Source: an uncultured bacterium
GTDB lineage: Bacteria; Verrucomicrobiota; Kiritimatiellia; RFP12; UBA3636
NCBI GenBank assembly: GCA_902793555.1
Contig: CADBEF010000049.1
Coordinates: 1 to 57,905, forward strand
Direction: 5' to 3'
Length of the DNA: 57,905 bases
Positions 3,707 to 49,542 of the stretch are shown here, piece after piece; positions within the stretch are counted from its first letter, which is position 1; each line of letters begins with the position of its first letter. A program made the position numbers and the translations under genes. The notes under the pieces were generated by a model. That model did no database searches. It saw only the letters and a program-made list of their open reading frames with translations, and was not told the origin of the DNA.

Positions 3707-3736
3707 CGTGTGGCGGGGTGTGGACCCCGCCACGCG
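3707..3736. terminator. palindrome family 1 hairpin GTGGCGGGG-N6-CCCCGCCAC after CDS 324..3659
   Basis: Arms 3710-3718 / 3725-3733, loop TGTGGA, 48 nt after the stop. No U-tract directly after, so terminator function is inferred. Confidence 0.45.
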
Positions 3737-3750
3737 GACGGGTTGGGTTC

Positions 3751-3807
3751 TTTACCTGTTTTTGCCCGATTTGAACCTACTCGCACGCTGGGGCGCGGGG
3801 GTATGAT
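3751..3807 (+). promoter_or_regulatory. promoter-like element TTTACC-N45-TATGAT for CDS 3895..4545
   Basis: TTTACC 3751-3756, TATGAT 3802-3807. AAGGAG Shine-Dalgarno 7 nt before ATG 3895. Confidence 0.5.
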
Positions 3808-3894
3808 ACGGGGCGTCGGCACCGCCACGGCCTTCGTCGGAGGCGCCCGGAAGAACCGGCCGACGACAACCCCGTCCCGGACAAGGAGACGCCC

Positions 3895-4545
3895 ATGAAC
3901 CGCATTGCCAGGAAAACCGCCGCACTCGCTTTCGCGGCCGCCGCCGCGCTCTTCGCCGCCCCCGCCGGGGCGGCGACGGACGTCACATGGACCGCCACGC
4001 CGCTGACCGCGAGCAGCACGTCGATCCGCACGGACGGAACGCTCAAGTACGCCTACGCCCGTGGAAACTACACGGCCAACGGCGTCGCGTTCACCGGTGT
4101 CGGCGACAAAATCGTCAATACGGCGGACTGCGTCGTCTGGGAAGCCTCAGGCGGGGCTGGAACCTCCGGTGCGACCGCTCCCGACGATACGGACGCTGGT
4201 GGCTATAAGGATTTGCTGGAGCATCCTTGGTGGGCGAGTGCCAAGGGCCGGAAGGTCCAGCTCAAGAACCTTGAGGCCGGGAAGACATATCTTCTCCAGA
4301 TCGTTGCGTTCCGCCAGGATTATACCACGCAGACCGCGACGGCTCCGGACGGAGTGGCCATCATCCATTACGGCGGAACGGACTGGGAATACGGCGGTTC
4401 GCTGATCTGCCAGTTCACCGCCGAAGCCACGACGGAGGAGTTCACGATCTCGTACAGCGGCCAGGCTTTGATCAACGCCATCCAGGTGCGCGAGCTTCCG
4501 CCGGACGAACCGGCGGAGAAGCCAGCGGTCATTACCGTCAAGTAA
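3895..4545 (+). CDS. secreted single-module protein (stand-alone copy of the ~180-aa CBM-like module)
   Basis: Signal peptide MNRIARKTAALAFAAAAALFAAPAGA. The body aligns by eye with module 3 of the 30282 giant (SIRTDGTL.YAYAR.NY..NGV.F.., LKNLE.GK.YL.QI.A.R.DYTTQTATAPDG.., WEYGGSL.., INAIQVREL). Confidence 0.85.
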   Translation: MNRIARKTAALAFAAAAALFAAPAGAATDVTWTATPLTASSTSIRTDGTLKYAYARGNYTANGVAFTGVGDKIVNTADCVVWEASGGAGTSGATAPDDTDAGGYKDLLEHPWWASAKGRKVQLKNLEAGKTYLLQIVAFRQDYTTQTATAPDGVAIIHYGGTDWEYGGSLICQFTAEATTEEFTISYSGQALINAIQVRELPPDEPAEKPAVITVK

Positions 4546-4558
4546 AGGCCTTACTTCA

Positions 4559-4840
4559 ATGCCCGATCCCGTCGCATCCGAGGTCCGTGCGCTTCCGTAC
4601 GGAGCGGAGGAAGGCGGCGAGTTCCGCTATCCGTGGGAGCATCCGCGGCTGGTCGAGGTCCAGCTGGTGGACGACACGGACCGGCACGACGACCTGTATT
4701 TCGAGAAGGAGCGCCTTCTCTCCCGCTGCGAGAGGCCGTTCGACGCGACCGGGCCGGCGCTCTTCCTCGAGGATTCGCTCGGCGGGGAGGGCGTCGCCTT
4801 CTTCCGCGAGCTGGACGCGCGGCAGATATTTCAACAATAG
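4559..4840 (+). CDS. hypothetical 93-aa ORF, possibly the 5' fragment of a gene truncated at an AT-rich junction
   Basis: Strong G/C third-position bias in this frame. The ORF stops exactly where the sequence turns AT-rich (..CAACAATAGAAAAATAATTATTG). No domain recognised. Confidence 0.35.
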   Translation: MPDPVASEVRALPYGAEEGGEFRYPWEHPRLVEVQLVDDTDRHDDLYFEKERLLSRCERPFDATGPALFLEDSLGGEGVAFFRELDARQIFQQ

Positions 4841-4851
4841 AAAAATAATTA

Positions 4852-4880
4852 TTGCGTTTGTAGTAAAATAATGATAGTCT
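4852..4880 (+). promoter_or_regulatory. sigma70-like promoter TTGCGT-N17-TAGTCT for the ATPase gene
   Basis: Hexamers at 4852-4857 and 4875-4880 in an AT-rich island. This placement would exclude ATG 4871 as the start. Confidence 0.35.
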
Positions 4881-4912
4881 CCGTTGCGTCGAAAGGGAAA
4901 GGAACGCCTGCC

Positions 4913-6118
4913 ATGCTGGAATCCGAGCTTCGGGAGATCATCCGGAAACAACACGAGGAGATGTCGCGGAAGAAGACGCTTCCGCGCGACGCGCTCGCGT
5001 CCCTTCGCACGGTTGCGCAGTTCGCGACGATCGCGACGGGCATCCGGCGGTGCGGAAAGAGCACGCTCCTGCACCAGTGGGCGGAGGCGCAGCGGAGGCC
5101 GACGCTCTCGCTCCTGTTCGACGACCTTCGGATGGCGTCGTTCTCGGCCGGCGACTTCGCGACGCTGGACCGGATCGTCGAGGCGGAGAAGCCGGCGAAC
5201 CTCGTGTTCGACGAGATCCAGCTCGTCGACGGATGGGAGCGCTACGTGAAGCAGAAGCTCGACGAGGGTTTCCGCGTCCTCGTCACGGGCTCCAACGCGA
5301 CCATGCTCAGCGCGGAGCTCGGGACGCACCTCACGGGCCGGCATCTCGACCTCGAGCTCCAGCCGTTCTCCTATGGCGAGTTCCTGCGGTTTACCGGCGC
5401 CAAGGCGTCGCCGAAGAGCGTGCTCGCGTATCTGGAGCGGGGCGGGTTCCCGGCCTACCTCGAGGCGGGCGAGCCGGAAATCCTCCGCCAGCTCGTTCGC
5501 GACATCGTGAACCGCGACGTCGCCGTGCGCCACGGCATCAAGGATGTCCGCCCCCTCGAGACGCTCGTCGCGTTCCTGCTCGCGAACGCGGGGAACCGCG
5601 TCACTCCGAGCCGGCTCACGGGCGCGCTCGGCGTGAACGCCCCGGCGACGGTCCTGGCGTGGTTCGACCATTTCGAGAAGGCGTATCTGGTCGAGCGCCT
5701 GGAGCGGTTCTCGGACTCCGCCAAGGCCCGCTCCCTCGCGCCCAAGAAGGTCTACGCGGCCGACACGGCCCTTGCGCGGATCGCGTCGCCTTCGCGCACG
5801 CCGGACCTCGGGCACGCGCTCGAGAACGCCGTCTGGGCGCGGATCCGCCGCCGGAGCGCGCAACGCTTCTACTGGGCGGACGACGCCTCCGAGTGCGACT
5901 TCGTCTTCGCCGATGCCTCCGGCGCGTTCTCCGCGGTGCAGGTCTGCTACGAGCTTGCGCCCGAGAACCGCGAGCGCGAACTGGCCGGGCTTCTCGGCGC
6001 CCTGCGGCAGTTCGGTCTGCGCGAAGGGACGATCGTCACGTTGCGGCAGAGCGACTTCGCCCGCGAGGACGGCCGAGCCATCCGCGTCGTCCCGGCCCAC
6101 GAATGGCTCGTGGACTAG
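4913..6118 (+). CDS. AAA+ ATPase of the AAA_14/DUF4143 (COG1373-like) family
   Basis: Walker A TGIRRCGKSTLL, Walker B-like LVFDEIQ, C-terminal ECDFVF nuclease-like motif. Paralogous to 49661..50896. ATG 4913 follows GAAAGGGAAAGGA. Alternative start ATG 4871. Confidence 0.85.
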   Translation: MLESELREIIRKQHEEMSRKKTLPRDALASLRTVAQFATIATGIRRCGKSTLLHQWAEAQRRPTLSLLFDDLRMASFSAGDFATLDRIVEAEKPANLVFDEIQLVDGWERYVKQKLDEGFRVLVTGSNATMLSAELGTHLTGRHLDLELQPFSYGEFLRFTGAKASPKSVLAYLERGGFPAYLEAGEPEILRQLVRDIVNRDVAVRHGIKDVRPLETLVAFLLANAGNRVTPSRLTGALGVNAPATVLAWFDHFEKAYLVERLERFSDSAKARSLAPKKVYAADTALARIASPSRTPDLGHALENAVWARIRRRSAQRFYWADDASECDFVFADASGAFSAVQVCYELAPENRERELAGLLGALRQFGLREGTIVTLRQSDFAREDGRAIRVVPAHEWLVD

Positions 6119-11156: not shown

Positions 11157-11184
11157 GCGTGGCGGGGTCTCCACCCCGCCACGC
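11157..11184. repeat. palindrome family 1 copy (GCGTGGCGGGG-TCTCCA-CCCCGCCACGC)
   Basis: Perfect 11-bp arms. It lies between divergent genes (hipB and 11266), so it cannot simply be a terminator. Confidence 0.7.
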
Positions 11185-15535: not shown

Positions 15536-15603
15536 AGCGGACTCGTGGCGGGGGACGTCGTCCCGCCCGCCGCGTCCAGGCAATCCGCAAACGGGAACGC
15601 CCC

Positions 15604-17964: not shown

Positions 17965-18864
17965 AGCCCGAACCCCTCGCCGCCCGCACGGGCGCGACCG
18001 TCGTCCTCGAGACGGACTTCTGCGGCGACGTCGACGACGTCGCCGCGCTCGCGCTGCTCTGCGCCGAGTCGCGGCGTCTCGTGCAACGTGGAGACGCCGC
18101 TCGCCGCGCCGGCCGTGAAGGCGGTCCTCGCCGCGTGGGGCCTGCAGGACGTCCCCGTCGGCGTCACGGACGATCCGCCGCCGCCGAGCGGCAACGAGTC
18201 CCCGTATCTGGCCGCGCTCGCGGCGACGTGGCGGGGTGCGCACCCCGCCACGGCGTGCACCGCGCGCGAGCTCTACCGCCGCGTCTTCGCGGAGGCGGCG
18301 GACGGCTCGGTCGACGTGATCTCGATCGGCTTCTTCAACACGCTCGACGAAGTCCTCGCGGAGGATCCCGCGCTTTTCCGCCGCAAGGTGCGCGCCGTCT
18401 GGGCGATGGCGGGCGGCTTCGGACGGTGCGCGGGCTACGCGGAGACCAACGTCCGGGAGCGTCCGGAGTCCACGCGCCGCTTCCTCGACGCATGGGACGG
18501 CCCGATCGTCTTCGTCGGGTTCGAGTCCGGCGAGAAGGTGGTCACCGACCTTTCCGGCCTGCCGCCGGACTGCGCCGCGCATCCGCTCGCCGAGGCGTTC
18601 CGGCGCTACTGCGGCCCCGGGATGACGCGGCCGAGCTGGGACCCGGTCACCGTCGACCTCGCGGTCCACGGCGAGAACGAGTGCTACGGGCTCGGCGAGC
18701 CGGGGCGCGTCCGCGTGGCGCCGGACCTCTCCACGCCCTTCGCGCCCGACCCCGCGGGCAACGCCCGCGTCCTGCGCCTCCGCGCGCCGGAGGACGCCGT
18801 CTCCGCGCGCATCACCTCGCTCCTGCGCGAGTCGGCCGGTTTCCCGCTCCGGGCTACTTGTTGA
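17961..18864 (+). pseudogene. nucleoside-hydrolase-like (IUNH-fold) gene, frameshifted near 18066-18088
   Basis: ATG 17961 (ATGA overlap with the upstream stop) gives MKPEPLAARTGATVVLETDFCGDVDDVAALALLCAESRR, a DxDxxxDD-type N-terminus. The continuation ..VSCNVETPLAAPAVKAVLAAWGLQDVPVGV.. is in the next frame (ORF 18088..18864). Confidence 0.6.
18227..18252. repeat. palindrome family 1 copy inside a coding region
   Basis: CGTGGCGGGG-TGCGCA-CCCCGCCACG, read in frame as ATWRGAHPATA. Confidence 0.7.
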
Positions 18865-20557
18865 AGCCTTTGTCCGTCAGAAACTCCCAGACCCGGTCGA
18901 GGAAGGTGTAGGAGCCGGTGCCGGGGGCGGCGGCGAAGTAGAAGCAGTGGCCGCGCGTGGCGAGCGTGTGCACCGCGCCCTGGACGCCCATGCGGCGCAG
19001 CTGCTCCCACGTCGCGACGGACGCCGTGGCGGGGTGCTCGTCCGCGTCGCCGTGGACGAAGAGGATCGGCGGCGTGTCGGGGTCGAACGGCAGCTCCGGG
19101 GCGAGGCGCAGCGCCGGGTCGTTGGAGCCGTCGGGCGTCCCGTTGTCGTAGGTGCCCTCAATCGTGTAGGCCGGGTAGATCGCGACGCACCACTGCACGG
19201 TGCAGGGGAGGTCGTCGGTCCCGTCGACCGGAAGGTAGGTGCGGTGGCGCGAGCCGGTCGCGGCCAGCAGCGCCAGGTGCCCGCCGGCGGAGCTGCCCAT
19301 CACGCCGATGCGGTCCGGGTCGAGGCCGCGCGCCGCGGCGCCGGCGCGGACGAGCCGGACCGCGCGCTGGACGTCCTGCCAGGCCGCGACGTGTTTGGCG
19401 AGGGGAGGGGAGGGGCGCGGCGTGCGGTAGCGGACCGTGACGACGGTCATGCCCTTTCCGTTGAGGTAGCGCCGCGCGGGCGCGACCTCGAAGCCGTCCG
19501 GGTCGTTGCCGAGGTAGGCGCCGCCGCTCCAGACGATCTGGATGGCGTCGGTCGTGCGCGTCTTCGGGAGGTGCCACTCGAGGATCGGCTCGCACTGGTC
19601 CGCCTGCGGGTGGGGCATGCGCCCCTCCGGCCAGATCGGCGCGGCCTCCGCGGCGCCGTCGCGCGCGTCGTCGGACGCGAACCGCTCGAGGATCGGCACC
19701 TCGGGCCCGAGCGGGCCGAGGAAGCCGATCTGGCGCAGGAACTCGACGCCGCGCTCGAGGCCGAACATGCCGTGCGGTTTGTCGGGATGGATGTGCAGCT
19801 CGGCCGGGACGCCCGCCGCGCGCAGGCGGCGGTAGATGCGCGTCGAGTTGAACGTCGAGTACGCGTCGGCGCCGCCGTGCGAGAGGAAGACCGGCGGCGT
19901 CTTGGAATCGAACGCGAAGGCGGGGTCGAGCTCGATGTCGAGGCCGTCGCCGTCGCGCTCGTTCGGGCACATCGGGCCGTCGGAGAGCATCCCGGCGGGG
20001 GCGAAGGCGACGGCGGCGTTCACGTGGCAGGGGATCTCGTCGAGCGCGTCGACGGGCTCGTAGACCTTCGTCTGCGACGCCGTCGCGAGGAGCAGCGAGA
20101 GGTGCGAGCCGGCGGACATCGAGACCGTGACGATGCGCTCCGGGTCGAAGCCGCGCGCGGCTGCCTGCGAGCGCACGACGCGGACGGCGCGGCGGGCGTC
20201 CTCCCACGCGGTCCTGTAGATCGCCATCCCGCGCGCCCACGGCGTGCGGTAGACGAAGTTCACGCACTGGAAGCCGAGCGCGTCGAAGCGCTCGCGCCAC
20301 TCCTTGATGAGGCCGACGTCGCAGCAGTTCTGGTAGGCGCCGCCGGAAATGAGGATCGCGCAGGCGCCGATGGGGTTCGCGGGCGGCGGATACCAGTCGA
20401 GGAAGGGCTCCGTGTGCGCGGCGGGGTCGAAGCCGGGGGCTTCCGCCTCGTCGGTCATCGCGGCGATCTGGTGGGGCTGGCGGTCGGGCATCGCGCCGGC
20501 GGGCCAGACCGGCTGGCGCTCCGCGACGGCGGGGTCGAAGGGTTTCATCGTGCTCAT
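18854..20557 (-). CDS. tandem alpha/beta-hydrolase (esterase/lipase-type, two domains)
   Basis: Two alpha/beta-hydrolase halves with nucleophile elbows VSMSAGSHL and GSSAGGHL, and C-terminal His blocks HPDKPHGMF / TRGHCF. Overlaps the 3' end of the convergent 17961..18864 by 11 nt. Confidence 0.8.
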   Translation of the reverse strand: MSTMKPFDPAVAERQPVWPAGAMPDRQPHQIAAMTDEAEAPGFDPAAHTEPFLDWYPPPANPIGACAILISGGAYQNCCDVGLIKEWRERFDALGFQCVNFVYRTPWARGMAIYRTAWEDARRAVRVVRSQAAARGFDPERIVTVSMSAGSHLSLLLATASQTKVYEPVDALDEIPCHVNAAVAFAPAGMLSDGPMCPNERDGDGLDIELDPAFAFDSKTPPVFLSHGGADAYSTFNSTRIYRRLRAAGVPAELHIHPDKPHGMFGLERGVEFLRQIGFLGPLGPEVPILERFASDDARDGAAEAAPIWPEGRMPHPQADQCEPILEWHLPKTRTTDAIQIVWSGGAYLGNDPDGFEVAPARRYLNGKGMTVVTVRYRTPRPSPPLAKHVAAWQDVQRAVRLVRAGAAARGLDPDRIGVMGSSAGGHLALLAATGSRHRTYLPVDGTDDLPCTVQWCVAIYPAYTIEGTYDNGTPDGSNDPALRLAPELPFDPDTPPILFVHGDADEHPATASVATWEQLRRMGVQGAVHTLATRGHCFYFAAAPGTGSYTFLDRVWEFLTDKGFNK

Positions 20558-28500: not shown

Positions 28501-30128
28501 CCGTGTGGGGCGGCGCGAAGCTGCTCTACGCCGACGGCAAGGTGCTCCCGAACGACGTCCGGCGCACGTCGCGCCAGCTCGGGATCCTCACGCCGCCGGA
28601 GCGCCCCGAGCCGCGCGTGAACGGCCCGCGCGTCTACGGCGTGCGGCCCGGCCGCCCGATCCTCTTCCGCGTGCCCGCGACCGGCGCCGCGCCGCTCCGC
28701 GTCGAGGTGATCGGCCTCGGGCTCGACAGCCCGAAGCTCGCGGGCCTCTCCTACGACCCCGCCACGCGGATCCTCTCCGGCCGCATCGACGAGCCCGGCG
28801 ACTACGCGCTCGCGATCCGCGCGACGAACCGCCTCGGCAGCGACGAGAAGCCGTTCACGATCCGGGTCGGCGAGACGATCTGCCTCACGCCCGCGATGGG
28901 CTGGAGCAGCTGGAACGCGTTCGCCGGAAGCGTCTCGGACGAGAAGGTCCGCGCCGCCGCGGACGCGCTCGTCTCGACCGGGCTGGCGGACCACGGCTGG
29001 GCCTACGTGAACGTCGACGACTTCTGGCAGAACATCCCCGAGCGCGCGAAGGCGGACCCGGCGCTCGACGGCCCCCCGCGCGACGCCGACGGCCGCATCG
29101 CGCCCAACTCGCGCTTCCCCGACATGAAGGCGCTCGCGGACCACATCCACGCGAAGGGCCTCAAGGCCGGCATCTACTCGAGCCCCGGGCCGTTCACCTG
29201 CGGCCGCGCCGCCGGGAGCTGGCAGCACGAGGAGCTCGACGCGAAGACGTTCGCCGAGTGGGGCTTCGACTACCTCAAGCACGACTGGTGCTTCTACGAC
29301 GACGTCGCGTTCGGCTCCGACGTGCTCCGAGCGATGTACCCCTACCTCGTGATGGGCGCCGCGCTGCGCCACCAGAAGCGGGACATCGTCCTCTCGCTCT
29401 GCCAGTACGGCATGGAGAACGTGAGCGCGTGGGGGCGGTGCGTCGGCGGGCAGAGCTGGCGCACGACGGGCGACGTCTTCGACACCTGGTCCTCGGTCTC
29501 CGCCGCCATCGAGAAGCAGAAGCGCCTCTTCCTCTACGCCGGCCCCGGCGCGTGGAACGACCCGGACATGCTCTGCGTCGGCGCGGTCTGCTGGAACGAC
29601 GGCAAGGAGTCGCGCCTCGCGCCGAACGAGCAGTACACGCACGTCTCGATGTGGGCGCTCCTCGCCGCGCCGCTGATGATCGGGTGCGACCTGGCGAAGC
29701 TCTCCCCGTTCACGCGCTCGCTCCTCGCGAACGACGAGGTGATCGAAATCGACCAGGACGAGCTCGGCAAGGCCGCGGGCTGCATCGCCGAGGGCGACGG
29801 CTGGGAGGTCTGGGCGCGCCCGCTCGCCGACGGATCCATCGCCGCCGGGCTCTACAACAAGTCCGGCTTCGAGCGGATGGTGCCCTTCGACCTCAAGAAG
29901 GCCGGGCTGCTCTGCAAGTGGCTCGTGCGCGACGTGTGGCGGCAGGAGGACGTGGGCGTTTTCATGGGCGTCTACGAGGCCTCCGTCCCCGGCCACGCGA
30001 CGCACCTCGTGCGCCTTCGCCCGTGCCGCTGCGGCAGGCTTCGCGACGACGTCACGGACGTCCGCGACGCCGCCTGGCGCCTCCTGCGCGAAAAGGACCT
30101 CGCCCGTTCCTCCGCTTCGGGCGAATGA
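22590..30128 (+). CDS. giant secreted multi-enzyme protein (2512 aa): 2 SGNH domains, CE1-like esterase, 4 Ig-like + 3 CBM-like modules, NPCBM-like, Ig (He_PIG-like), GH27 alpha-galactosidase
   Basis: Signal peptide MKPNSFTFLSAAILAMAAANAPA. SGNH1 (FLGDELVQNW, Ser replaced), SGNH2 (LLGDSITQKW, GRTGDFTENLLWR, LLIGTNN). Esterase VVVFLHGYGQCG..GLSMGGHGTW. NPCBM-like ..GTVALKVLADGREVW.. GH27 motifs LTPAMGWSSWNAF, YVNVDDFW, FDYLKHDWC, WNDPDML. Approximate borders: Ig1 24078-24368, CBM1 24369-24895, esterase 24933-25680, Ig2 25684-25970, CBM2 25971-26525, Ig3 26550-26860, Ig4 26861-27160, CBM3 27175-27725, GH27 from about 28880. Confidence 0.9.
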   Translation: MKPNSFTFLSAAILAMAAANAPAVSIRANTPASRLDAWWTARHAEKVAAVADASVKKDIVFLGDELVQNWETTGAAALASHFAGDRTMFNLGFAGDCTENVLWRIRNGELGSPKAIFLMIGGNNSAIYTKAEEAPGKTIRAVRDIIDYLKANCGSAKIVVQAILPRGLDESNPVRPRNDLVNNEIRRYAGEKGCAWVDMTDLFLESDHHTLKTSLFNADHATLNADGYAVWAQAVAPYVDAASSGAAMPADLVATARPANAVTATYPSSKAVMENFFWEKYLYDLSAIGGKSYDIVLLGDSITQKWSSSDPDSMNGLGSKVFNLGRTGDFTENLLWRLEGGCLDGYTTKFFNLLIGTNNTIQREPAKDDPADIAAGVKAVLDLVLAKHPESKVLLMPILPYGYTNAQHNATGMAQYANNEAANEIIKTYADGQRVILVDVRNQFLNADGTFKGEMYLEKDGDYPDMFLHLSAKGYREIMAPAISAAMASAGASSVTLPALDNVTAQVSGTSATISLSGVTKGTDANGAAASSYSVVSKLDTDAEATVLSGQSGATASFSLADLADGWHSCAVTVRNGDGMVSATKRVKFQIDSQADAVGWKVAPMTADGSAIRGDGTKVFAIAKSGDTAGGVTFDSSSDPSNASLETTPAKDGGDGWGLGVNNNIVNAFWWWNMSGTSTDVTFKLKGLTDGRKYLVQIVASHYHNSSGITISAGDVAPVTANDSNDYRYGAVVTRVFEASGTTENVVVNFSGSSSKFEVKAIQLRELGDGSGGGGGGGGGEDLTGEFVKKTFVASNKLQLPYRVAAKADPNGGKVPVVVFLHGYGQCGVDNSFTINEMSNIQRYLDGAGGPSGYKLLVPQCPNDVKWAEFSMNSTTCTFQDKPSAALQAVFDLLDAYAAMADVDADRIYVTGLSMGGHGTWDAICRRPDFFAAAMPCCGGGDPACAADIAHVPVLAVHNRGDPTIPVEQTEGIVTALRALGSDVIFEKLENNSHDAWTTCYATEDDVTAGAPNHRFVWMFAQNRATNNRPKYPRIAELAAAPSGSNATISLTGVVLGTDADSVPATKYSVAYKLDGGAAVTALSDQTADCSFTLEGLADGNHTCEVTMTTDKGRTKTRSVVFYVNTSAVSDVWTSAQMDEAGDSFSTEGTFVYGYVCNGGTINGIPFERSINLQSSENPPKISFNPNIDGFTGDFLNEGVGGNFGLTLGNGWYWDSDGAGTHTVTLTLSNLEGGKKYLVQFLAHNFFNNTTIVSANGCDPVHIHGDNAESGKYGALVTGVFTAVGATKDVTITYQGGSGKMPFNAVQVRELDGGGGGGGGATVVEPSIGSVTATPDGSTASLFLSGIVMGTDDAGTNATSYSVSYALNGGAAVTALQNLTAATATFSIEGLADGDYACAVTITTDKGKTSAAKSVSFRIGTPPPPVIAPSIAAATANVAGSNATVTLSGIVLGTDDAGTNATSYSVSYALNGGTSVAALANQTTDTASFSIENLADGSYACAVTVTTDKGKTATKSVSFAVSTSGGGGSVVEGWTVGPMAADGSTIRTDGTLLYAYCSPGGTVGGVPFARAVNLDAATMVSASPASAGNSGGSFGDGGATGDFGNMLRDGWYWTGEEVPLSFTLTLSGLTAGHAYLVQLVSHRTSNSTTVSANGSTPVYIHGTHDGVDYTYGASLVGVFTATGATADITVTYPTGTGNRPLNAIQVRDLGEAGGGGFQDWPEDPDTAITDATSPADLGLTGGAFAEAGTTTAELRRLAKWAKKNGVPFGGADVNAMSFDADGNPDNALSAAYLLNCAVAGLDEAKAAFRFAGIDPGTVPAIAGTYNGTVTVFGADAPSGPWQPATDQHQFDVTRVVRGEGVCEVACAAIEKRFSTPAKKHFFGLRTPVPFAVEIPVGGDAAAFEASCGIDAAGAPGTVALKVLADGREVWSGVVAAGAAADLKARADVSGAQTFTLVAEPADGGAGKGVGAVWGGAKLLYADGKVLPNDVRRTSRQLGILTPPERPEPRVNGPRVYGVRPGRPILFRVPATGAAPLRVEVIGLGLDSPKLAGLSYDPATRILSGRIDEPGDYALAIRATNRLGSDEKPFTIRVGETICLTPAMGWSSWNAFAGSVSDEKVRAAADALVSTGLADHGWAYVNVDDFWQNIPERAKADPALDGPPRDADGRIAPNSRFPDMKALADHIHAKGLKAGIYSSPGPFTCGRAAGSWQHEELDAKTFAEWGFDYLKHDWCFYDDVAFGSDVLRAMYPYLVMGAALRHQKRDIVLSLCQYGMENVSAWGRCVGGQSWRTTGDVFDTWSSVSAAIEKQKRLFLYAGPGAWNDPDMLCVGAVCWNDGKESRLAPNEQYTHVSMWALLAAPLMIGCDLAKLSPFTRSLLANDEVIEIDQDELGKAAGCIAEGDGWEVWARPLADGSIAAGLYNKSGFERMVPFDLKKAGLLCKWLVRDVWRQEDVGVFMGVYEASVPGHATHLVRLRPCRCGRLRDDVTDVRDAAWRLLREKDLARSSASGE

Positions 30129-39961: not shown

Positions 39962-41388
39962 TCGAAGAACACCTCTATCGCAAAAAGGCCCTCGGCGCCT
40001 GGCTCGGCAAGGCCGTCGGCGGAACGCTCGGCGCCCCGTGGGAGGGCTGCCGCGGACCGCTCGCGCTCACCTTCTACGACCCCGTCCCGACGGACATGGT
40101 CCCGAACGACGACGTCGACCTGCAGGTCGTCTGGGCGTGCCGCCTCGCGACGGACTGGAAGGGCGTCGTCTCGTACGCGAACTTCTCCGACGCCTGGCAG
40201 CGCAACATCGGCTTCGCGCTCGACGAGTACGGCGTCGCGAAGCGCAACCTCGCGCGCGGCATCCCCGCGCCGCACTCGGGCGGCGCGGCGATCCGCTCGG
40301 AGATCTGGGCGCTGCTCGCGCCCGGGGACCCCGCCACGGCGGCGCGCCTCGCGCGCGTCGACGCCTCCGTCGACCACGCGGGCGCCGGCGTGCACGCCGA
40401 GCAGTTCCTCGCGGCGCTCGAGTCCGCGCTCTTCGCCACGTCCGACCTCCGCGCCGCGATCGCCGCGGGCCTCGCGCAGATCCCGTCCGATTCGCGCCTC
40501 GCCCGCGCGATCGCCGACACGATCCGCCTCTGCGACGGGGGCGGCGACATCGCGTCCGTCCGCGCCGCGATCCTCCGAGACCGCGGCAGCGAGAACTTCA
40601 CGGACGTCTCGATGAACCTCTCGTTCGAGGTCGCGGCGCTCCTGCTCGGCGGCGGCGACTTCGCGAAGACCATCTGCCTCGCCGTGAACTGCGGGCGCGA
40701 CGCGGACTGCACCGGCGCCACCGTCGGCGCGATCATGGGCCTCCGCGACCCGGACGCGATTCCGGACGAGTGGCTCCGGCCCATCGGCCGCTCGCTCGTC
40801 CTCAACGAAGGCATCGCGGGCATCGAGCCGCCGCCGACGCTCGACGCGCTCACGGACCTGATCGCCTCGCTGCGCGGCCGCGTTTCGATCGACGACGCCG
40901 AGCCGCCGCGCCCCGACCTCTCGCGCTTCGCGATCCGCTGCCGGCGCGGCCTGTACCGCCCGTGGTTCGCCTACGACTGCCTCCGCACGCGCCCGGAGGA
41001 GCGGCCCCTTTCCGAGGAGGTCCTCCTCCCCGGCAACGTCTCGACCGTCGACTTCTCCGGCCTTCCGCCGGAGTCGCTCCTGCTGCTCGAGACGGACCTG
41101 ACGCTCCCCGCCGGGCGCGACGTCCTGCTGCTCGTGAGCACGACCGCGGACTTCCGCGCGTGGCTCGACGGCGAGCCCGTCCTCGGCCAGGAATGCGGCC
41201 CGTTCGTCCCGGCGTTCCACCGCACGCCGGCCAACCAGCGCAAGGCGCTCCGCCTCGCCGCCGGCGTCCACAAGCTCCGCATCGGCCTCGCGCCGGCGGG
41301 GGAGGGGATGGCCTCGGCGCCGCTCGCCTTCGGCCTCGCCGACCCCGCCGACTCCGCCTGGCTGCCCGACTCGATCTACGCCCGCTAG
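39958..41388 (+). CDS. ADP-ribosylglycohydrolase-family protein with a C-terminal extension
   Basis: ALGAWLGKAVGGTLGAPWEG and VNCGRDADCTGATVGAIMG are the characteristic N- and C-terminal metal-site blocks of the family. Confidence 0.85.
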   Translation: MIEEHLYRKKALGAWLGKAVGGTLGAPWEGCRGPLALTFYDPVPTDMVPNDDVDLQVVWACRLATDWKGVVSYANFSDAWQRNIGFALDEYGVAKRNLARGIPAPHSGGAAIRSEIWALLAPGDPATAARLARVDASVDHAGAGVHAEQFLAALESALFATSDLRAAIAAGLAQIPSDSRLARAIADTIRLCDGGGDIASVRAAILRDRGSENFTDVSMNLSFEVAALLLGGGDFAKTICLAVNCGRDADCTGATVGAIMGLRDPDAIPDEWLRPIGRSLVLNEGIAGIEPPPTLDALTDLIASLRGRVSIDDAEPPRPDLSRFAIRCRRGLYRPWFAYDCLRTRPEERPLSEEVLLPGNVSTVDFSGLPPESLLLLETDLTLPAGRDVLLLVSTTADFRAWLDGEPVLGQECGPFVPAFHRTPANQRKALRLAAGVHKLRIGLAPAGEGMASAPLAFGLADPADSAWLPDSIYAR

Positions 41389-41773: not shown

Positions 41774-43252
41774 ATGAACAAACTTGCCCTCTTCGTCCCC
41801 CTTCTCGCCCTCGCCGCCGCGCCGGCGCGCGCCGAAGACCCCGCCACGAACGCGCCGGTCGGGGAAATCGAAGGTCCGATTTCCGTTTTTCCGCCCAAGC
41901 CGAAGGAAATCCAAGAAGTCGTCGCCGTCCATGGCCGGGGCCTACGGAGTCCCCGCGCCCGCGGACCGGGCGAACAGGCCCGCAATCTTGCACGCTGGGG
42001 CGCAGGCGCGAGCAGTCCCGCCGTCCTCCGCGCGCTGCGCTGGCTCAAGACGCAGCAGCTAGACGACGGTTCCTGGCCCGGCAACCCCGTCGCCTCCACT
42101 GCCCTCGCGCTCTGGACCTACCTCGACCACGGCGATCTTCCCGGCGGCGACGCCGAATTCGGTCCGACCGTCGAGCGCGCGGTGCGGTTCCTGGCCGAGG
42201 ACGTCGATCCGGAGTCCGGCCTCTTCCGTTCCGCGCACGGAGAGCCCTTCGCGCAACCGCTCGGCTTTTTCGCGCTCGCCCTCTACGTCAAGGAGACGTC
42301 GAATCCTGTCGCCCGGGAGGCCGCCGCGGCCGCCAGCCGTCCGCTCTTCGCCGGACAGCGCCCCGACGGTGCCTGGAACGCCGACCCGCTCGACCCTTCG
42401 CCGGACGGTCTCCGCAACCTCCGCTCGACCGTCTGGTGCGCGCTCGCGCTCCGCGGCGCGCTGCAGCGGGGTTTTGACTTCGGCCCGTCCGAGGAGGATG
42501 CCGTCCGCCGCGCCTTCGGCGCCGTCGCGTCCTTTCTGGACCCCGCCACGGGCGCGGTGCGCCGTCCCGACGGGACCGCCGACCCTGCCACGGCCGCCGC
42601 CGCGTTCGCCCTGGACGAATTCGACCGCGACGATCCGATCGCGAAGAAGGCCGTCGCCTTTCTCGCCCCCTGCACCGTCTTCTGGACGGCGTGGGAGGGC
42701 CCGCAACCCTGGACCGCGGGAGACGCCCCCGTCCGCGACTGGTTCTTCGTCACCTGTGCAAAATACGGCACGAACCCCGATTTTCCCCGCTGGAACAAGT
42801 GCTTCTTGCCGGAATTTCTCAAACGCCAGACCATCGTCAAAGCCGCGGAAAGCGGCTACGAGGACGCGGAAGGGACTCCCCGCGACATCGCCTGGTGGGA
42901 CTCCCCGTCCGCGGAGGAAAGGGGCGTCGGCTCCGGCGGTTCCGTCCTGCCCTGCAAACGGTGGCGCGGCGGCGAATCCGTTGACGGGGAAACAACCCTC
43001 GGAGACCGCGTCCGCGACACCTGCCTCTGCGCGCTCGCGCTGATGGTCTACTACTCCAACCCGCCCGCCGCTTCCCATTTTGAAGAAGAAGTCTCCATCC
43101 TCCGACCGAAGAAATCCGACGACATCCCCGTCTCCGTCCACAGGAAGCCCGAACTCAAAGGAAGCGACATCCGCGTCATGCGCAAGCCGCACCCCGCCAC
43201 GCCCGCGTCCCACGCGGAAACCGCGGAGGGCGCGAAGGAGCCCTCCCCGTGA
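41774..43252 (+). CDS. secreted prenyltransferase/squalene-oxidase-repeat (alpha/alpha-toroid) protein with family leader and tail
   Basis: MNKLALFVPLLALAAAPARAEDPATNAP.. Toroid-repeat motifs ALRWLKTQQLDDGSW, RPLFAGQRPDGAWN. Ends ..HPATPASHAETAEGAKEPSP. Confidence 0.85.
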   Translation: MNKLALFVPLLALAAAPARAEDPATNAPVGEIEGPISVFPPKPKEIQEVVAVHGRGLRSPRARGPGEQARNLARWGAGASSPAVLRALRWLKTQQLDDGSWPGNPVASTALALWTYLDHGDLPGGDAEFGPTVERAVRFLAEDVDPESGLFRSAHGEPFAQPLGFFALALYVKETSNPVAREAAAAASRPLFAGQRPDGAWNADPLDPSPDGLRNLRSTVWCALALRGALQRGFDFGPSEEDAVRRAFGAVASFLDPATGAVRRPDGTADPATAAAAFALDEFDRDDPIAKKAVAFLAPCTVFWTAWEGPQPWTAGDAPVRDWFFVTCAKYGTNPDFPRWNKCFLPEFLKRQTIVKAAESGYEDAEGTPRDIAWWDSPSAEERGVGSGGSVLPCKRWRGGESVDGETTLGDRVRDTCLCALALMVYYSNPPAASHFEEEVSILRPKKSDDIPVSVHRKPELKGSDIRVMRKPHPATPASHAETAEGAKEPSP

Positions 43253-43257
43253 ACCCT

Positions 43258-43320
43258 CTTGCCCGCGAGCGGCAAAGCCGCGACACCCGGCCGCAGCCGG
43301 CGTGGCGGCACCCCGCCCAC
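43258..43320 (+). repeat. 63-nt intergenic repeat R1 (copy 1), three consecutive hairpins
   Basis: CTTGCCCGCGAGCGGCAAAGCCGCGACACCCGGCCGCAGCCGGCGTGGCGG.., repeated at 48284-48349. Hairpins GCGGC-AAA-GCCGC and CCGGC-CGCA-GCCGG, plus a degenerate family 1 palindrome. Confidence 0.8.
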
Positions 43321-43362
43321 AACCACTAACCACTAACCACTAACCACTAACCACTAACCACT
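43321..43362 (+). repeat. perfect heptanucleotide repeat (AACCACT)x6
   Basis: Six exact units, ending 25 nt upstream of ATG 43388. Confidence 0.95.
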
Positions 43363-44653: not shown

Positions 44654-44685
44654 GCCCGCACACCCCGCCACGCCCTAGCACCCCT

Positions 44686-44730: not shown

Positions 44731-44754
44731 CCTTCCCGAATTCCCCGCCACGCC

Positions 44755-44806: not shown

Positions 44807-45796
44807 ATGAAACGCCTCGCCCTCCTCCTCCCCCTCCTCGCCCTCGCCGCCGCACCCGTGCGCGCCGAAGACCCCGCCACGAACGATCCCGTTGGCGTCG
44901 GCATTGGCGCGCCGGGCCCGGTATTCGGCGAAGGGGTCACGCCCGATCCGAACCTGATGTTCGTCTGGGAAGAGGCCCTCTGGGTCGGAGTTCTCTACTC
45001 CGCTTCGATCGCAGTGGCCGACATCGACTTTTCCGCGCTCGCCGGCGATAGCCATGAAAGGAAATACATCGAGCTTCCCTTCGTCGTCCGGGATTGTCTC
45101 AAGGGCTCTCTCCCGGGCACGAACCTCGTTCTCAAGGTTTGGCCGGAGGATCAAAAGGAGATGAAGGCATTGCACGCCTACTCTTCGACCGCTTCCACGA
45201 ACGGTTCGGCGCTTCTCTTCCTCGTCCGTCCTTTCGAGGAATCGAGCCGCGAGTGCTTCCTTGTAAGTGAATACCGATACGCGATCCGGCGCGCGGACGA
45301 GAAGTCGATCGCCGAAACGAAGCGCGAAATCGGCGCCCAGCTGCGTGCATTGGAGGCATTCGACCGGCTTGTGTCTCCCGAATCGCTGCCGCACTGGTCC
45401 GCGGTTTCCAATGCCGTCGCCGAACTGACGATCGACGCGGACCACCAATCCAGATCCGTTGACGCCATTCTCGACCTCGGCATCGAGGCGGTTCCCGCGC
45501 TCATCGCCCTCATGGACGATCGCCGTGAGCTCCCCGTCAAAAGCATCTCTCTCGAGAATTCGCCAGGACATTGGGAGGCCTGTCGGCATTACGGTCCCCA
45601 AACGGTCGTCGACCTTGTGGACGCCCTCGCCGACCATTTCGTGAAAATCGGCCTGGTTTCCGTCATGAACGGGGGAACGGAACAGAATCGGCGGCAAGCG
45701 GTTGTCCGGTGGAAGCTCCTCCTGATTCGGTGGCTTGAGGAAAACCGAACGTCCGGCAAGTTCCTGAAGCCCGTTCTGGTCGGAAGGTTTGACTAG
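44807..45796 (+). CDS. secreted hypothetical protein with HEAT-like segment, family signal peptide
   Basis: MKRLALLLPLLALAAAPVRAEDPATNDPVG.. HEAT/PBS-lyase-like AILDLGIEAVPALIALMDDRR. Visibly lower G+C than its neighbours. No family tail. Confidence 0.75.
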   Translation: MKRLALLLPLLALAAAPVRAEDPATNDPVGVGIGAPGPVFGEGVTPDPNLMFVWEEALWVGVLYSASIAVADIDFSALAGDSHERKYIELPFVVRDCLKGSLPGTNLVLKVWPEDQKEMKALHAYSSTASTNGSALLFLVRPFEESSRECFLVSEYRYAIRRADEKSIAETKREIGAQLRALEAFDRLVSPESLPHWSAVSNAVAELTIDADHQSRSVDAILDLGIEAVPALIALMDDRRELPVKSISLENSPGHWEACRHYGPQTVVDLVDALADHFVKIGLVSVMNGGTEQNRRQAVVRWKLLLIRWLEENRTSGKFLKPVLVGRFD

Positions 45797-45917: not shown

Positions 45918-45991
45918 CTGTCATTCCGAGCTAGAAAAACAAGCTGTATGGGTGTTGATTTTTTAAATATGTTCAAAAATACCCCGTTAAC

Positions 45992-46020: not shown

Positions 46021-46027
46021 CCGCGCC

Positions 46028-46311: not shown

Positions 46312-46346
46312 CTTCGGGCGGGCGCGGCGCCGCCGCCCCGCCCGAC

Positions 46347-46823: not shown

Positions 46824-46830
46824 CGTTTCT

Positions 46831-46964: not shown

Positions 46965-46997
46965 TCCCGAAAACCCCGCCACGAAAGAAAACACGCC

Positions 46998-47765
46998 ATG
47001 CACCGCCTCGCCCTCCTCCTCCCCCTCCTCGCGCTCGCCGCCGCGCCGGCACGCGCCGCAGACCCTGTCACGAACGCGGTGCTGGCGTCGAAAGACGATT
47101 CCGGAAAAATCATTCTCTGTGGAAACGATGGTTCTGTTGTTCCGTTCAAGCTAAGAATCGTCACTGCTTCAAAGGGCCCCGAATGGTGGATGGCGCTTTG
47201 GCCGCCTGCATTTATCTCACGAGCAATTTATGTTGATGATGTCATCGATGAAACACGATTCTTTTTGGGGGAATTGCCCGTTTTTCCTTCGCGGCTTTCT
47301 TCTCTTCGGTTTACATTCCTTGCCAACAACATCCCAACTACAACGATTCCGGAATCCATCGATCATTTTCCGGAAAGCAAAGTAATCGTTGACGCATTGT
47401 TCAATACCTTGAATGCATCGAACAAGACGACAAGAGCGGATGAAGGGCTCGTTGTGGTTACTCTGGAAAGGGACAATTCTGGATTCAAGTCGGGCTATGC
47501 TTGCTACATGCGTTCCGCAGCTGCTTGTTTTTCTGGTTTTGACGACTGGCTTGCCAATCATACTGAGTCCTTTGCGCCAGACAGAAACGCCATCAACAAT
47601 GCGTCAGAGTGGGTTTACCAGGAACTTAAAGCACGAGAAGCGTTCTTGGCGGCTTCCTCAAGAGAAATGCCTGTCGGAACAAACGCCATTCTGTCATCGA
47701 ACCCCGCCACGAACGCGCCCGCCCATCACGCGGAATCCGCGGAGGGCGCGGAGAATCGGGAATGA
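46998..47765 (+). CDS. secreted hypothetical protein with AT-rich core between family leader and family tail
   Basis: MHRLALLLPLLALAAAPARAADPVTNAV.. Core without recognisable domain. Ends ..SSNPATNAPAHHAESAEGAENRE. Confidence 0.75.
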   Translation: MHRLALLLPLLALAAAPARAADPVTNAVLASKDDSGKIILCGNDGSVVPFKLRIVTASKGPEWWMALWPPAFISRAIYVDDVIDETRFFLGELPVFPSRLSSLRFTFLANNIPTTTIPESIDHFPESKVIVDALFNTLNASNKTTRADEGLVVVTLERDNSGFKSGYACYMRSAAACFSGFDDWLANHTESFAPDRNAINNASEWVYQELKAREAFLAASSREMPVGTNAILSSNPATNAPAHHAESAEGAENRE

Positions 47766-47851
47766 AACACGGAGCCGCGCAGAGCCGGCCGAAGCGCCGA
47801 GATTCCGCGCCGCGTCCTTTTCGGCGCTCTCGCCGGGTTGGAGCGAGGGGA

Positions 47852-47911
47852 TTAGAGCGACAGATCCGAGTGTGTCCCGGTGTCCGCGAGAACAAGAACG
47901 AGAATGCTCAT
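47852..47911 (-). pseudogene. remnant (19 codons) of a RelE/YafQ-type toxin gene
   Basis: The ATG overlaps the antitoxin stop (ATGA) and reads MSILVLVLADTGTHSDLSL-stop. ..TGTHSDL. is the usual C-terminal end of RelE/YafQ toxins, and the rest is missing. Confidence 0.55.
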
Positions 47912-48180
47912 TTGTTTCCCATGAACTCTTCGATCTTCGCGGGATCGGTGCAGGTGGGCGCGTCGGGGTCGTGCGCGACGGCCTTGGCTTCCTCCAATGC
48001 GGCCGCAAGGCGCGCCGCCTTGCGCTGGCGCGTCAGCTTGAACGGGATTTCCCCGTCCGCAAGGCACTTCTTGAAGAAGCACGTGATGGCCGTCGTGAGG
48101 GTCATGCCGATGTCATCGAAGAACTCTTCGGCATCGGCCTTGAGCCCGTTGTCCATCCGGATGGTGAGGGAAGTCGTCAT
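47908..48180 (-). CDS. relB: RelB/DinJ-family antitoxin
   Basis: MTTSLTIRMDNGLKADAEEFFDDIGMTLTTAITCFFKKCLADGEIPFKL.. is the ribbon-helix-helix RelB/DinJ N-terminus. These are the last 90 codons of the spurious 545-aa ORF 47908..49545. Confidence 0.8.
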   Translation of the reverse strand: MTTSLTIRMDNGLKADAEEFFDDIGMTLTTAITCFFKKCLADGEIPFKLTRQRKAARLAAALEEAKAVAHDPDAPTCTDPAKIEEFMGNK

Positions 48181-48283
48181 TGCAGATTGCTCCTTTTGTC
48201 GTAGAACAACGTGCATTCTACGAAAATCCGCGTGCAATGTCAATGCGGATCGACTGCTTCGCTTGAAGCCTGTCCCCGAAACA

Positions 48284-48349
48284 CTTGCCCGCGAGCGGCG
48301 AAGCCGCGACACCCGGCCGCAGCCGGCGTGGCGGAACACCGCCACGCCG
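48284..48349 (+). repeat. intergenic repeat R1 (copy 2) ending in a perfect 11-bp palindrome
   Basis: CTTGCCCGCGAGCGGCGAAGCCGCGACACCCGGCCGCAGCCGGCGTGGCGG-AACA-CCGCCACGCCG. Confidence 0.8.
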
Positions 48350-48399
48350 TGCAACGCCGCCCAATCCCGGACACCCCGCCACGCGGAGCGACCCCGCCA

Positions 48400-48489
48400 C
48401 GAAAATTTTACATTCCCATGACATTTCGAAAATCGGTTTCTGCTAGAATCCCCCGCCGTACGACCACCTCCAATCCCCAAAACCTCGCC
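48400..48489 (+). promoter_or_regulatory. conserved promoter+leader block, copy 3
   Basis: CGAAAATTTTACATTCCCATGACATTTCGAAAATCGGTTTCTGCTAGAATCCCCCGCCGTACGACCACCTCC.., TAGAAT 48444-48449. Confidence 0.65.
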
Positions 48490-49542
48490 ATGAAACGCCG
48501 CGCCCTTCTCCTTTCCCTCCTCGCCCTCGCGCCGCTCGCCGTAGGTGCGGCGGGGCTCCGTCTTGTCGACGCCGAAGAACTCGCGAAGCTCGACGAAGAA
48601 CGCGCCAAAACCGGCGACGAACCCGCCGTGACGGTCGACGGAACCGTCGTGGCGACGAAAAACCGGTTCCGGTTCGTCGTCGATCCGACCCGCAGCCGGA
48701 ATCTCGGAACCGTGGACTTTCTCCTCCAATGGGCGCCTCGCGAACCTTTCGTCGACGAGCCCTCTCCGTTCGCTTGGACGGTGGCCGGGCAATACGCGGA
48801 CGACCGCTTCGCGGCCCGATGCATCGCAGACGCCTTCCTTCTGGACCGCGAAGCGGAGAAACGGGGGTTCGAGTCGGGAGAAACGATGGTCCGGGACGGC
48901 ATCGCCGAACCGACCGAAGAAGAACTGCGCGCCGCGTGGGCGGCCATTCTGGCCGAAAACCCGTCGGAGGGACGCATCGGGGAAACGGTCGAGGCGTCCC
49001 ACCTCCTGGTCCTCCTTCCCGAAGGCGCTTCGGCCGACGACGACGCGGCCGCCCAGAAGAAAGCCAAGGCCCTCCGGGAACGCATTCTGGCCGGAGAGGC
49101 GTTCGCGGCCGTCGCGCGGGAAGCGTCCGACTGTCCGTCGAAAGCCCGCGGAGGATCGCTCGGATCGTTCACGCGCGGACAGATGGTTGCGGCGTTCGAA
49201 GAGGCCGCGTTTTCGCAGCCGGTCGGCGTCGTGGGGGAACCGGTGCGGACCGAATACGGCTGGCACTTGATTCTCGTGACGAAACGGGAACCAGCGCGCG
49301 AACGCCGTTTCGAGGAAGTCCGCGACGATCTCAAGGCCGATTTGTTCGCCCAAAAGCTCGAAGACCGCATCGAACGGCTCCTCGAACCGCTGCGGAAGGC
49401 CGCCGTCGTCCAATACGCGCCCGGCTACGATCCCGCGGAGCCTTCGGTTTTGTATTGGAACCCCGCCACGCCGGGCCCCGCCACGAACGCGCCCGCCGCG
49501 GATGAACCTCACGCAGAGAGCGCGGAGAACGCGGAGAATTGA
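48490..49542 (+). CDS. secreted parvulin-type peptidyl-prolyl isomerase (SurA/PrsA-like) with family tail
   Basis: MKRRALLLSLLALAPLAVGA.. PpiC block ASHLLVLL..FAAVAREASDCPSKARGGSLGSFTRGQMVAAFEEAAF..VRTEYGWHLILV. Ends ..NPATPGPATNAPAADEPHAESAENAEN. Confidence 0.85.
   Translation: MKRRALLLSLLALAPLAVGAAGLRLVDAEELAKLDEERAKTGDEPAVTVDGTVVATKNRFRFVVDPTRSRNLGTVDFLLQWAPREPFVDEPSPFAWTVAGQYADDRFAARCIADAFLLDREAEKRGFESGETMVRDGIAEPTEEELRAAWAAILAENPSEGRIGETVEASHLLVLLPEGASADDDAAAQKKAKALRERILAGEAFAAVAREASDCPSKARGGSLGSFTRGQMVAAFEEAAFSQPVGVVGEPVRTEYGWHLILVTKREPARERRFEEVRDDLKADLFAQKLEDRIERLLEPLRKAAVVQYAPGYDPAEPSVLYWNPATPGPATNAPAADEPHAESAENAEN

Follow-up and report, generated by a model that had tools for sequence, protein, structure and literature searches.

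The closest described counterparts of the sequence word considered here are the DNA uptake sequences (DUS) of Neisseriaceae (AT-GCCGTCTGAA) and the uptake signal sequences (USS) of Pasteurellaceae (core AAGTGCGGT), which are clade-specific words of 9-12 nt that occur in massive excess, with hundreds to thousands of copies. To our knowledge, sequence-specific DNA uptake is firmly established only in two proteobacterial families, and, among established mechanisms, we know of none other than preferential uptake of self DNA with subsequent recombination by which a word spreads within coding sequence in the manner described below. In both systems, one orientation is favoured within genes and the reading frames are biased, while about half of the copies are located in terminators, where almost all inverted repeats are found (PMC2346458; bioRxiv 10.1101/2025.10.24.684340). 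A word with a comparable anatomy, the 11-mer ACCCCGCCACG, is present in a 57,905-nt stretch of DNA (contig CADBEF010000049.1 of assembly GCA_902793555.1, hereafter the window) from an uncultured bacterium of the Kiritimatiellia. This 11-mer is best explained as a signature word specific to one lineage, a high-GC clade of rumen Kiritimatiellae, and maintained genome-wide at the level of the DNA. By analogy with DUS and USS, the word may be a DNA-uptake-type sequence driven by biased uptake of self DNA, a reading to which a probability of roughly 0.4 is assigned. No description of the word, or of uptake-like sequences in Kiritimatiellae, was found in the literature, where the word itself gave only coincidental matches, such as yeast telomere repeats and primers.

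Like DUS and USS, the word is largely intragenic with a preferred orientation and frame, its copies originate by substitution and are predominantly exact, and its inverted pairs form hairpins just past genes. It differs from them in being unrelated in sequence, in belonging to an uncultured host of the Planctomycetes-Verrucomicrobia-Chlamydiae (PVC) superphylum, and in being known here from sequence alone. Its pairs have one spacing and a preferred tip and can join larger mosaic repeats, and its density is lower, with about one copy per 3 kb (~0.3 per kb) compared to roughly 0.7-1 per kb for DUS and USS.

Excess of the word in the window and among relatives

An earlier reading of the window (the sequence-only reading) had drawn attention to the 9-mer CCCCGCCAC, with a tally of 16 plus-strand and three minus-strand copies. 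All 19 listed sites are exact matches, but three copies had been missed, at 15545 (-), 19026 (-) and 28757 (+). This brings the count to 22 (17 on the plus and five on the minus strand), while dinucleotide-preserving shuffles (n = 100) average 1.24 copies, with no more than 5 in any one of them. The over-representation is real and larger than was claimed, but the true unit is longer, as the flanks extend almost all copies to aCCCCGCCACg, that is, ACCCCGCCACG. This 11-mer has 18 exact copies in the window, compared to an expectation of 0.08 (order-3 Markov model) or 0.36 (order-5), and ranks first among the over-represented 11-mers of the window. The A at position -1 and the G at +9 are kept irrespective of whether a copy is sense, antisense, intergenic or part of a palindrome; a comparison of copies from all contexts revealed no conserved position beyond these flanks, and in the palindromes, positions +10 to +22 past the right arm are G/C-rich without T-runs. 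One-mismatch copies of ACCCCGCCACG are fewer than exact ones in the window (11 vs. 18). The degenerate copies of the 9-mer that had been pointed out do exist, those at 42582 and 48336 carrying one mismatch and those at 43301-43320 and 47049 being looser.

Half of the copies (11 of 22), all in one orientation, are borne by duplicated leader, tail or intergenic modules, and CCC, GCC and ACG are preferred codons. Both facts would be accommodated if the word were a by-product of a D-P-A-T peptide motif, of local paralogy or of a composition of 68% G+C. However, shuffles and Markov models give only 0.1-2.6 copies, and intergenic and antisense copies carry the same 11-mer. The 11 copies outside the modules, comprising three palindromes and the singles at 15545, 19026, 28757, 40329 and 42541, still amount to about ten times the chance level by themselves. 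The excess therefore extends beyond local paralogues, since the other half of the copies is scattered and the word is also present in related genomes. Peptide, paralogy and composition are refuted by these expectations, by the dispersed copies, by the enriched relatives and by the codon test described below, and the probability left to them is negligible.

The word marks a single high-GC clade, because related loci are enriched while distant relatives of lower G+C content are without copies. The 24-nt palindrome formed by an inverted pair was scanned in one genome per GTDB species, and its matches pile up in at least ten metagenome-assembled genomes (MAGs) of rumen Kiritimatiellae, on many contigs each: at least 12 in RUG10674, 10 in CAMVRE, 8 in RGIG1497 and fewer in several other MAGs. 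Other high-GC genomes mostly contain single matches, evidently due to chance. Unbiased loci were fetched via unrelated proteins, namely homologues of the esterase and the ADP-ribosylglycohydrolase encoded in the window. Among these, L140 (21.7 kb) contains 6 copies vs. 0.38 expected and L144 (21.7 kb) contains 12 vs. 0.57, corresponding to 16-21 times expectation. The window and the unbiased loci together hold 41 copies in ~120 kb, compared to ~2.6 expected (~16-fold). In distant relatives (loci L123-L127; protein identity 49-75%, GC 44-59%), no copies are present in 7-21 kb. Viral contigs yielded 12 palindrome matches, nearly all of which are chance hairpins lacking the t...a flanks, and only L131 is clade-like. 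A soil Acidobacteria MAG (13_1_40CM_65_14) bears GTGGCGGGG-N6-CCCCGCCAC on three contigs (L012, L048 and L073), two of which have flanks in common and the tip 'ccccac'; judged by these flanks, the acidobacterial pairs look like a separate repeat family that coincidentally shares the arms.

The plus-strand bias that had been noted is real (17:5 in the full count), but is explained by gene direction and by co-oriented modules. Nearly all genes of the window are on the plus strand and the copies follow the sense strand, while the 11 copies in co-oriented modules account for most of the bias and for the cluster of 13 plus-strand copies at 40.3-49.5 kb, which was confirmed. Strand asymmetry, together with one copy per 3-4 kb, is also what a Chi-like or DNA-guidance signal would produce, i.e., a RecBCD/AddAB recombination hotspot or an FtsK-type polar sequence selected genome-wide. 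In addition, the copies lie in frequent codons, as with E. coli Chi, and the complement CGTGGCGGGGT is G-rich with GTGG/GCGG; known Chi sites are G-rich and of the GTGG/GCGG type. Chi (GCTGGTGG) and the polar sequences known as KOPS (FtsK orienting polar sequences) and AIMS (architecture imparting sequences) are likewise short asymmetric words in frequent codons that recur every few kb. However, these show a few-fold excess and are replication-polar, whereas the word described here is in far larger excess (16-200 fold, depending on the sequence set), is oriented with genes and forms perfect inverted pairs, which play no role in those systems. In L144, six plus-strand and six minus-strand copies are interleaved within 10 kb and follow gene direction, and the GC skew within the window reverses with gene orientation. 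A replication signal was rejected as the source of the strand bias, since in these sequences the skew as well as the orientation of the motif goes with the direction of the genes, and a Chi-like function is accordingly judged quite unlikely.

Copies within genes and their origin

Within genes of the window, all 11 copies lie on the sense strand in the frame xxC-CCC-GCC-ACG, as computed from the coordinates of the open reading frames (ORFs). The fixed frame that had been described thus holds, also for two copies absent from the earlier list, and is mostly what codon usage permits. A codon test was carried out on ~70,600 predicted codons from the window and the clade loci. Pro-Ala-Thr tripeptides number 63 vs. 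33.5 expected, and the encoding CCC-GCC-ACG (32 vs. 3.45 expected) makes up the entire tripeptide excess, the remaining encodings pooled being at expectation (31 vs. ~30). Since a single encoding accounts for all of it, the over-representation of Pro-Ala-Thr is a property of the nucleotides and not of the peptide. Shuffling of synonymous codons showed that the same frame is the cheapest by codon usage, with 13.3 sense compared to 4.95 antisense copies, and antisense copies are enriched too (16 vs. ~5 expected). When the database gene calls for the window and the unbiased loci are used, 23 of 27 intragenic singles occupy the sense frame, compared to 3 on the antisense strand, with NAC-CCC-GCC-ACG, encoding D/H/N-P-A-T, being favoured. 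For loci selected by the palindrome, genes came from a predictor based on G+C content at third codon positions and the sense bias is weaker (20:15); the database calls on unbiased loci were relied on instead.

Alignment of three sites with homologues shows that in-gene copies arise by point substitution rather than insertion, in some cases overwriting conserved residues. In the ADP-ribosylglycohydrolase, the ancestral ..PGDPERAA.. or ..PGDPALAA.. has become ..PGDPATAA.. only in the closest clade, within which the site is polymorphic (DPAA, APAT, DPVT). In the esterase, HGDADGWAAMNSV is conserved across dozens of homologues and reads HGDADxHPATASV only in the clade; in one relative, the word is broken by a synonymous CAC-to-CAT change. 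For the palindrome at 18228, which encodes part of a variable loop in a nucleoside-hydrolase-like protein, homologue loops are equal in length, so that insertion of a mobile hairpin into this gene was rejected. Likewise, the idea that singles are decayed palindromes was rejected, as the partner arms of intragenic singles are no better than chance. Whatever the mechanism, the data reveal a force at the DNA level that is able to override conserved residues of enzymes.

Substitution at near-matching sites is also what would be expected if a methyltransferase and mismatch repair converted near-matches to the exact word, as proposed for the highly iterated palindrome HIP1 (GCGATCGC) of cyanobacteria. 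HIP1 is similarly in word-level excess in coding and non-coding DNA and has a substitution origin; here too, copies are present in coding and non-coding DNA alike and exact copies prevail over one-mismatch copies. HIP1, however, is an 8-nt palindrome linked to a methyltransferase site, whereas the present word is asymmetric and palindromic only when paired. The window suggests no such enzyme pair, we know of none for an asymmetric 11-mer, and inverted pairs of fixed geometry past genes are left unexplained by this process, which is considered very unlikely.

Inverted pairs and the uptake reading

Three GTGGCGGGG-N6-CCCCGCCAC palindromes had been described in the window as perfect and as lying after a gene, between divergent genes and inside a coding sequence, all of which is borne out. 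Their full form is cGTGGCGGGGt-N4-aCCCCGCCACg. The predicted RNA stems are 11 to ~20 bp long, with -29 to -49 kcal/mol for the segments folded, and palindrome 1 is predicted to fold at -46 to -48.6 kcal/mol (z -6.1). Across the clade loci and the window, 49 perfect palindromes were found, all with the G-rich arm first and with identical spacing, and 19 of these have the tip tgcgga or, as its complement, tccgca. At least 27 palindromes are non-coding by gene prediction, and 12 of these 27 (44%) are situated ≤60 nt downstream of a stop codon, compared to 14% of random intergenic positions. The palindromes thus show a preference for the stretch 4-60 nt past stop codons, where several lie between convergent genes. 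Few palindromes deviate in the 9-nt core (~6 with a mismatch vs. 49 perfect ones, with a single compensated double change), which indicates that the word itself is maintained and not merely the pairing. In the window and in L055, L064 and L095, the palindrome is one module of a conserved ~90-nt element of three hairpins; L008 bears this element with the palindrome deleted, and at 43301 and 48327, the degenerate copies in the window represent the element in a form with a deleted tip. The site that corresponds to the single copy at 44743 is a full palindrome in the relative RUG10674 (L063). Palindromes in three different MAGs (L036, L002 and L107) share the right flank ..gatgaagcgccgaagccgccgcgccg next to unrelated left flanks, one of them having the opposite tip (tccgca vs. 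tgcgga); from this flank pattern, the palindrome may mark a rearrangement boundary or be invertible.

Hairpins of this kind invite comparison with the repetitive extragenic palindromic (REP) sequences and bacterial interspersed mosaic elements (BIMEs) of E. coli, Pseudomonas and Stenotrophomonas, which have REP-associated tyrosine transposases (RAYTs) and are also GC-rich hairpins with conserved stems past gene ends, mosaic combinations and a GTGG arm. The pairs would then be miniature mobile hairpins copied by such a transposase into mosaic repeats, and the singles would be by-products. The perfect hairpin with its fixed geometry and biased tip, the preference for extragenic sites past stop codons, the BIME-like clustering in a multi-hairpin element with tip-deletion variants, and the k-mer depth of the surrounding modules, which is 20-80x that of gene bodies in rumen DNA and RNA runs, all fit this proposal. 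The arm also starts with GTGG, and a GTGG-type tetranucleotide is reportedly conserved in REPs. However, REPs are extragenic, imperfect and asymmetric palindromes of 20-40 nt, whereas the word is mostly found as 11-nt intragenic single arms, which exceed palindromes ~10:1 in unbiased sequence, and the singles are neither decayed hairpins nor associated with a change in length. In addition, the palindrome is perfect and symmetric, lacks a tetranucleotide (GTAG/GTGG) outside the stem as well as a conserved flank, and does not show the orientation expected of REPs. None of the 28 window proteins scanned against Pfam matches the Y1 transposase family, and no RAYT was seen among them. A REP-like origin of the word is therefore regarded as improbable.

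The position of the pairs also bears on a role at the RNA level, in which pairs would act as terminators or 3' stabilising hairpins and the C-rich sense single as a site for an RNA-binding protein or nuclease. The enrichment past stop codons, including those of convergent genes, the very stable predicted hairpins, the abundance of copy-bearing modules in metatranscriptome contigs and the sense bias within genes (24:3 in unbiased sequence) all point in this direction. However, the sense and frame bias is mostly predicted by codon usage in the synonymous shuffles, antisense copies are likewise enriched, and ordinary terminators can do without a particular, invariant sequence in the stem. Palindromes overall do not have the GC-rich hairpin with a directly following U-tract that defines an intrinsic terminator; in a terminator scan, only palindrome 1 of the three in the window passes, and an Rfam scan of the whole window gave no family matches. 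A primarily RNA-level function is hence also held to be improbable.

Out of the three analogies offered by the sequence-only reading, DNA uptake fits best, REP fits the palindromic minority only and Chi is unsupported. The uptake analogy is favoured because the excess in genes is at the DNA level, the frame is the cheapest available, copies originate by substitution, pairs lie past stop codons and the word is restricted to one clade. In the proposed mechanism, naturally transforming cells would take up self DNA preferentially on the basis of its sequence and then recombine it, which would spread and maintain the word, the force being a molecular drive as described for the DUS of Neisseria and the USS of Pasteurellaceae. 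In the permissive space past genes, inverted pairs could also act as 3' hairpins that terminate transcription or stabilise mRNA.

Several observations weigh against this reading. The sense-to-antisense ratio in genes is marginally higher than the ~2.7:1 expected from codon usage (p ~0.04), which leaves room for a role at the RNA level. A third unbiased locus, L142, is without enrichment (1 copy vs. 0.42 expected in 18.5 kb), and the density rests on ~120 kb of unbiased sequence, so that a whole-genome count is an extrapolation. Only one of the three window palindromes has a T-rich tail. The single fixed spacing, the biased tip and the embedding in the ~90-nt element make the paired form look more like copy-and-paste repeats than like pairs that arose independently. 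Furthermore, nothing on competence in Kiritimatiellae was found in the literature, and we know of no cultured member of the clade.

If the uptake reading is correct, these Kiritimatiellae would be naturally transformable with a preference for self DNA, and the word would shape protein sequences, terminators and high-copy leader and tail modules. It is a more doubtful suggestion, again by analogy, that the word represents a third independently evolved family of uptake sequences, the first outside Proteobacteria and in a rumen lineage of the PVC superphylum. Given its uptake-like anatomy, the word would allow natural competence to be tested directly in a rumen lineage that is uncultured. It could also be used as a marker in binning and in following gene flow between rumen Kiritimatiellae, and as a tag to improve genetic access if members are cultured.

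Repeat modules and other features of the window

The copies and modules of the window are listed in Table 1. Five related contigs (88-93% nucleotide identity) join position 41388, the stop of the ADP-ribosylglycohydrolase gene, directly to the promoter of the last gene at ~56966. Since these contigs skip it, 41389-56950 represents an insert of 15.5 kb that is strain-specific. The insert contains 12 of the 22 copies, all within its first 8 kb and 11 of them in repeat modules, while its gene bodies (~13 kb) have one exact copy (42541) compared to ~3 expected at the density of the remaining window. It comprises a secreted-protein array, a RelB/DinJ-like gene, an AAA_14/DUF4143 ATPase and an alpha-2-macroglobulin, and no repeats are visible at its junctions.

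Table 1. Positions of the word, its modules and a second over-represented word in the window
Feature	Position	Strand	Sequence and context
Palindrome 1	3700..3743		tGTGGCGGGGt-gtgg-aCCCCGCCACg; T-rich tail; stem extended to ~18-20 bp; at 3710, 51 nt past stop codon of a 1200-aa gene
Palindrome 2	11158..11183		cGTGGCGGGGt-ctcc-aCCCCGCCACg; between divergent hipA-like gene (-) and gene starting at 11266 (+)
Single copy	15545..15553	-	Intergenic, between 13289-15349 and 15604-17964; weak degenerate partner
Palindrome 3	18227..18252		cGTGGCGGGGt-gcgc-aCCCCGCCACg; within nucleoside-hydrolase-like reading frame; encodes TWRGAHPAT
Single copy	19026..19034	-	Sense strand of esterase gene (18854-20557, -); encodes HPAT; replaces ancestral GWAAMN
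Single copy	28757..28765	+	Sense frame DPAT; 2512-aa multidomain esterase/alpha-galactosidase gene
Single copy	40329..40337	+	Sense frame GDPAT; ADP-ribosylglycohydrolase gene; from ancestral GDPAL/GDPER
Module copy	41839..41847	+	Directly past shared signal peptide of gene 41774-43252; AEDPATNAP
Single copy	42541..42549	+	Sense frame LDPATG, body of gene 41774-43252; one-mismatch copy at 42582
Tail copy	43192..43200	+	Opens shared 3' tail module of gene 41774-43252, HPATPASHAETAEGAKE then stop
Post-stop composite hairpin element	43258..43322	+	Ends in tip-deleted palindrome GGCGTGGCGGcaCCCCGCCcAC
Intergenic copy	44663..44671	+	9 nt past stop of gene 43388-44653; upstream of long hairpin
Intergenic copy	44743..44751	+	Downstream of that long hairpin; start of CA/T-rich leader of next gene
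Module copy	44872..44880	+	After shared signal peptide of gene 44807-45796; AEDPATNDP; paralogue of 41839
Intergenic copy	46974..46982	+	15 nt upstream of ATG 46998
Tail copy	47702..47710	+	Opens 3' tail module of gene 46998-47765, NPATNAPAHHAESAEGAENRE then stop
Post-stop composite hairpin element, second copy	48284..48350	+	Tip-deleted palindrome GGCGTGGCGGaacaCCGCCACGCC
Two direct intergenic copies	48374 + 48392 (48374..48400)	+	Immediately upstream of shared 110-nt leader/promoter region
Two direct copies	49461 + 49476 (49461..49484)	+	3' tail of PpiC-type isomerase gene 48490-49542, NPATPGPATNAP...
Leader/start/intergenic modules	41656-41870, 43258-43476, 44655-44895, 46338-46447, 46965-47086, 48284-48530
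Tail modules	43183-43252, 47693-47765, 49452-49542
GTTCACGATC	2810, 4440, 15142, 16164, 21789, 25085, 28853, 32147, 33911, 35651, 53222	+

The first 8 kb of the insert form an array of secreted-protein genes with modules that are common at the nucleotide level. These are a 110-nt leader, the start context, the signal peptide MKRLALLLPLLALAAAPARA, the segment AEDPATNAP, post-stop hairpins and a C-terminal tail module ending in ..PATNAP..HAESAEGAE.. before the stop. The modules join otherwise unrelated secreted proteins and recur in related MAGs, and contigs break at them; such high-copy repeats account for the short contigs in assemblies of these genomes. Their spread could be due to, for example, gene conversion or cassette exchange. 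The intergenic mosaic and Correia elements of Neisseria are likewise high-copy composite intergenic repeats that contain the signature word of their genome; they have no sequence kinship with the present modules, which differ in reaching into coding sequence (signal peptide and C-terminal tail). The 5' leaders carry G-poor simple repeats (AACCACT x7 and CATTCATCATTCAG x2, at 43321-43369 and 44756-44785), as do those of related MAGs.

Among the plus-strand module genes, a RelB/DinJ-like antitoxin gene is encoded on the minus strand (47908-48243), with a promoter near consensus (TTGACA-17-TAGAAT at 48243-48215); no toxin partner was identified for it. The AAA_14/DUF4143 ATPase is represented by two paralogues in the window (4871-6118 and 49637-50896). 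A third copy may have decayed within the insert, as suggested by a 41-nt fragment at 46092-46132 with 85% identity to the second paralogue.

The G+C content along the window is 64-74%. Its sequence was found in public runs from bovine and sheep gut metagenomes, and the database proteins closest to those of the window carry the name Kiritimatiellae. An exact look-up of one window protein returned no record. A phage origin was rejected, as megablast gave no 40-50 kb match among phage records. The genes of the window encode giant multidomain proteins of the esterase, alpha-galactosidase, immunoglobulin (Ig) and fn3 types, a BspA-type leucine-rich repeat protein, alpha-2-macroglobulin, HipA, AAA_14/DUF4143 ATPases and ADP-ribosylglycohydrolase.

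Two genes have interrupted reading frames. The nucleoside-hydrolase-like gene (17961-18864) starts at ATG 17961, which overlaps the upstream stop as ATGA, and carries its DxDxxxDD motif in one frame, the reading switching to another frame from ~18080 onward; it is either a frameshifted pseudogene or affected by an assembly error. The alpha-2-macroglobulin (50955-56911) is split into the overlapping ORFs 50955-55811 and 55697-56911, the second containing the C-terminal bMG10 domain, which probably reflects a frameshift. Between the HAD hydrolase gene and the start of the ADP-ribosylglycohydrolase, 39795-39959 is occupied by tandem repeats, with three copies of a 24-nt unit followed by ~11 copies of the 9-nt TCAACCGCT; this array is length-polymorphic, as other strains skip ~105 nt there.

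A second over-represented word, the 10-mer GTTCACGATC, is present in 11 copies, all on the plus strand, compared to an expectation of 0.4-2. Each copy encodes x-Phe-Thr-Ile in a large protein rich in Ig/fn3 domains, and the word is probably a beta-strand peptide motif in preferred codons. Coding strands generally contain more C than G.

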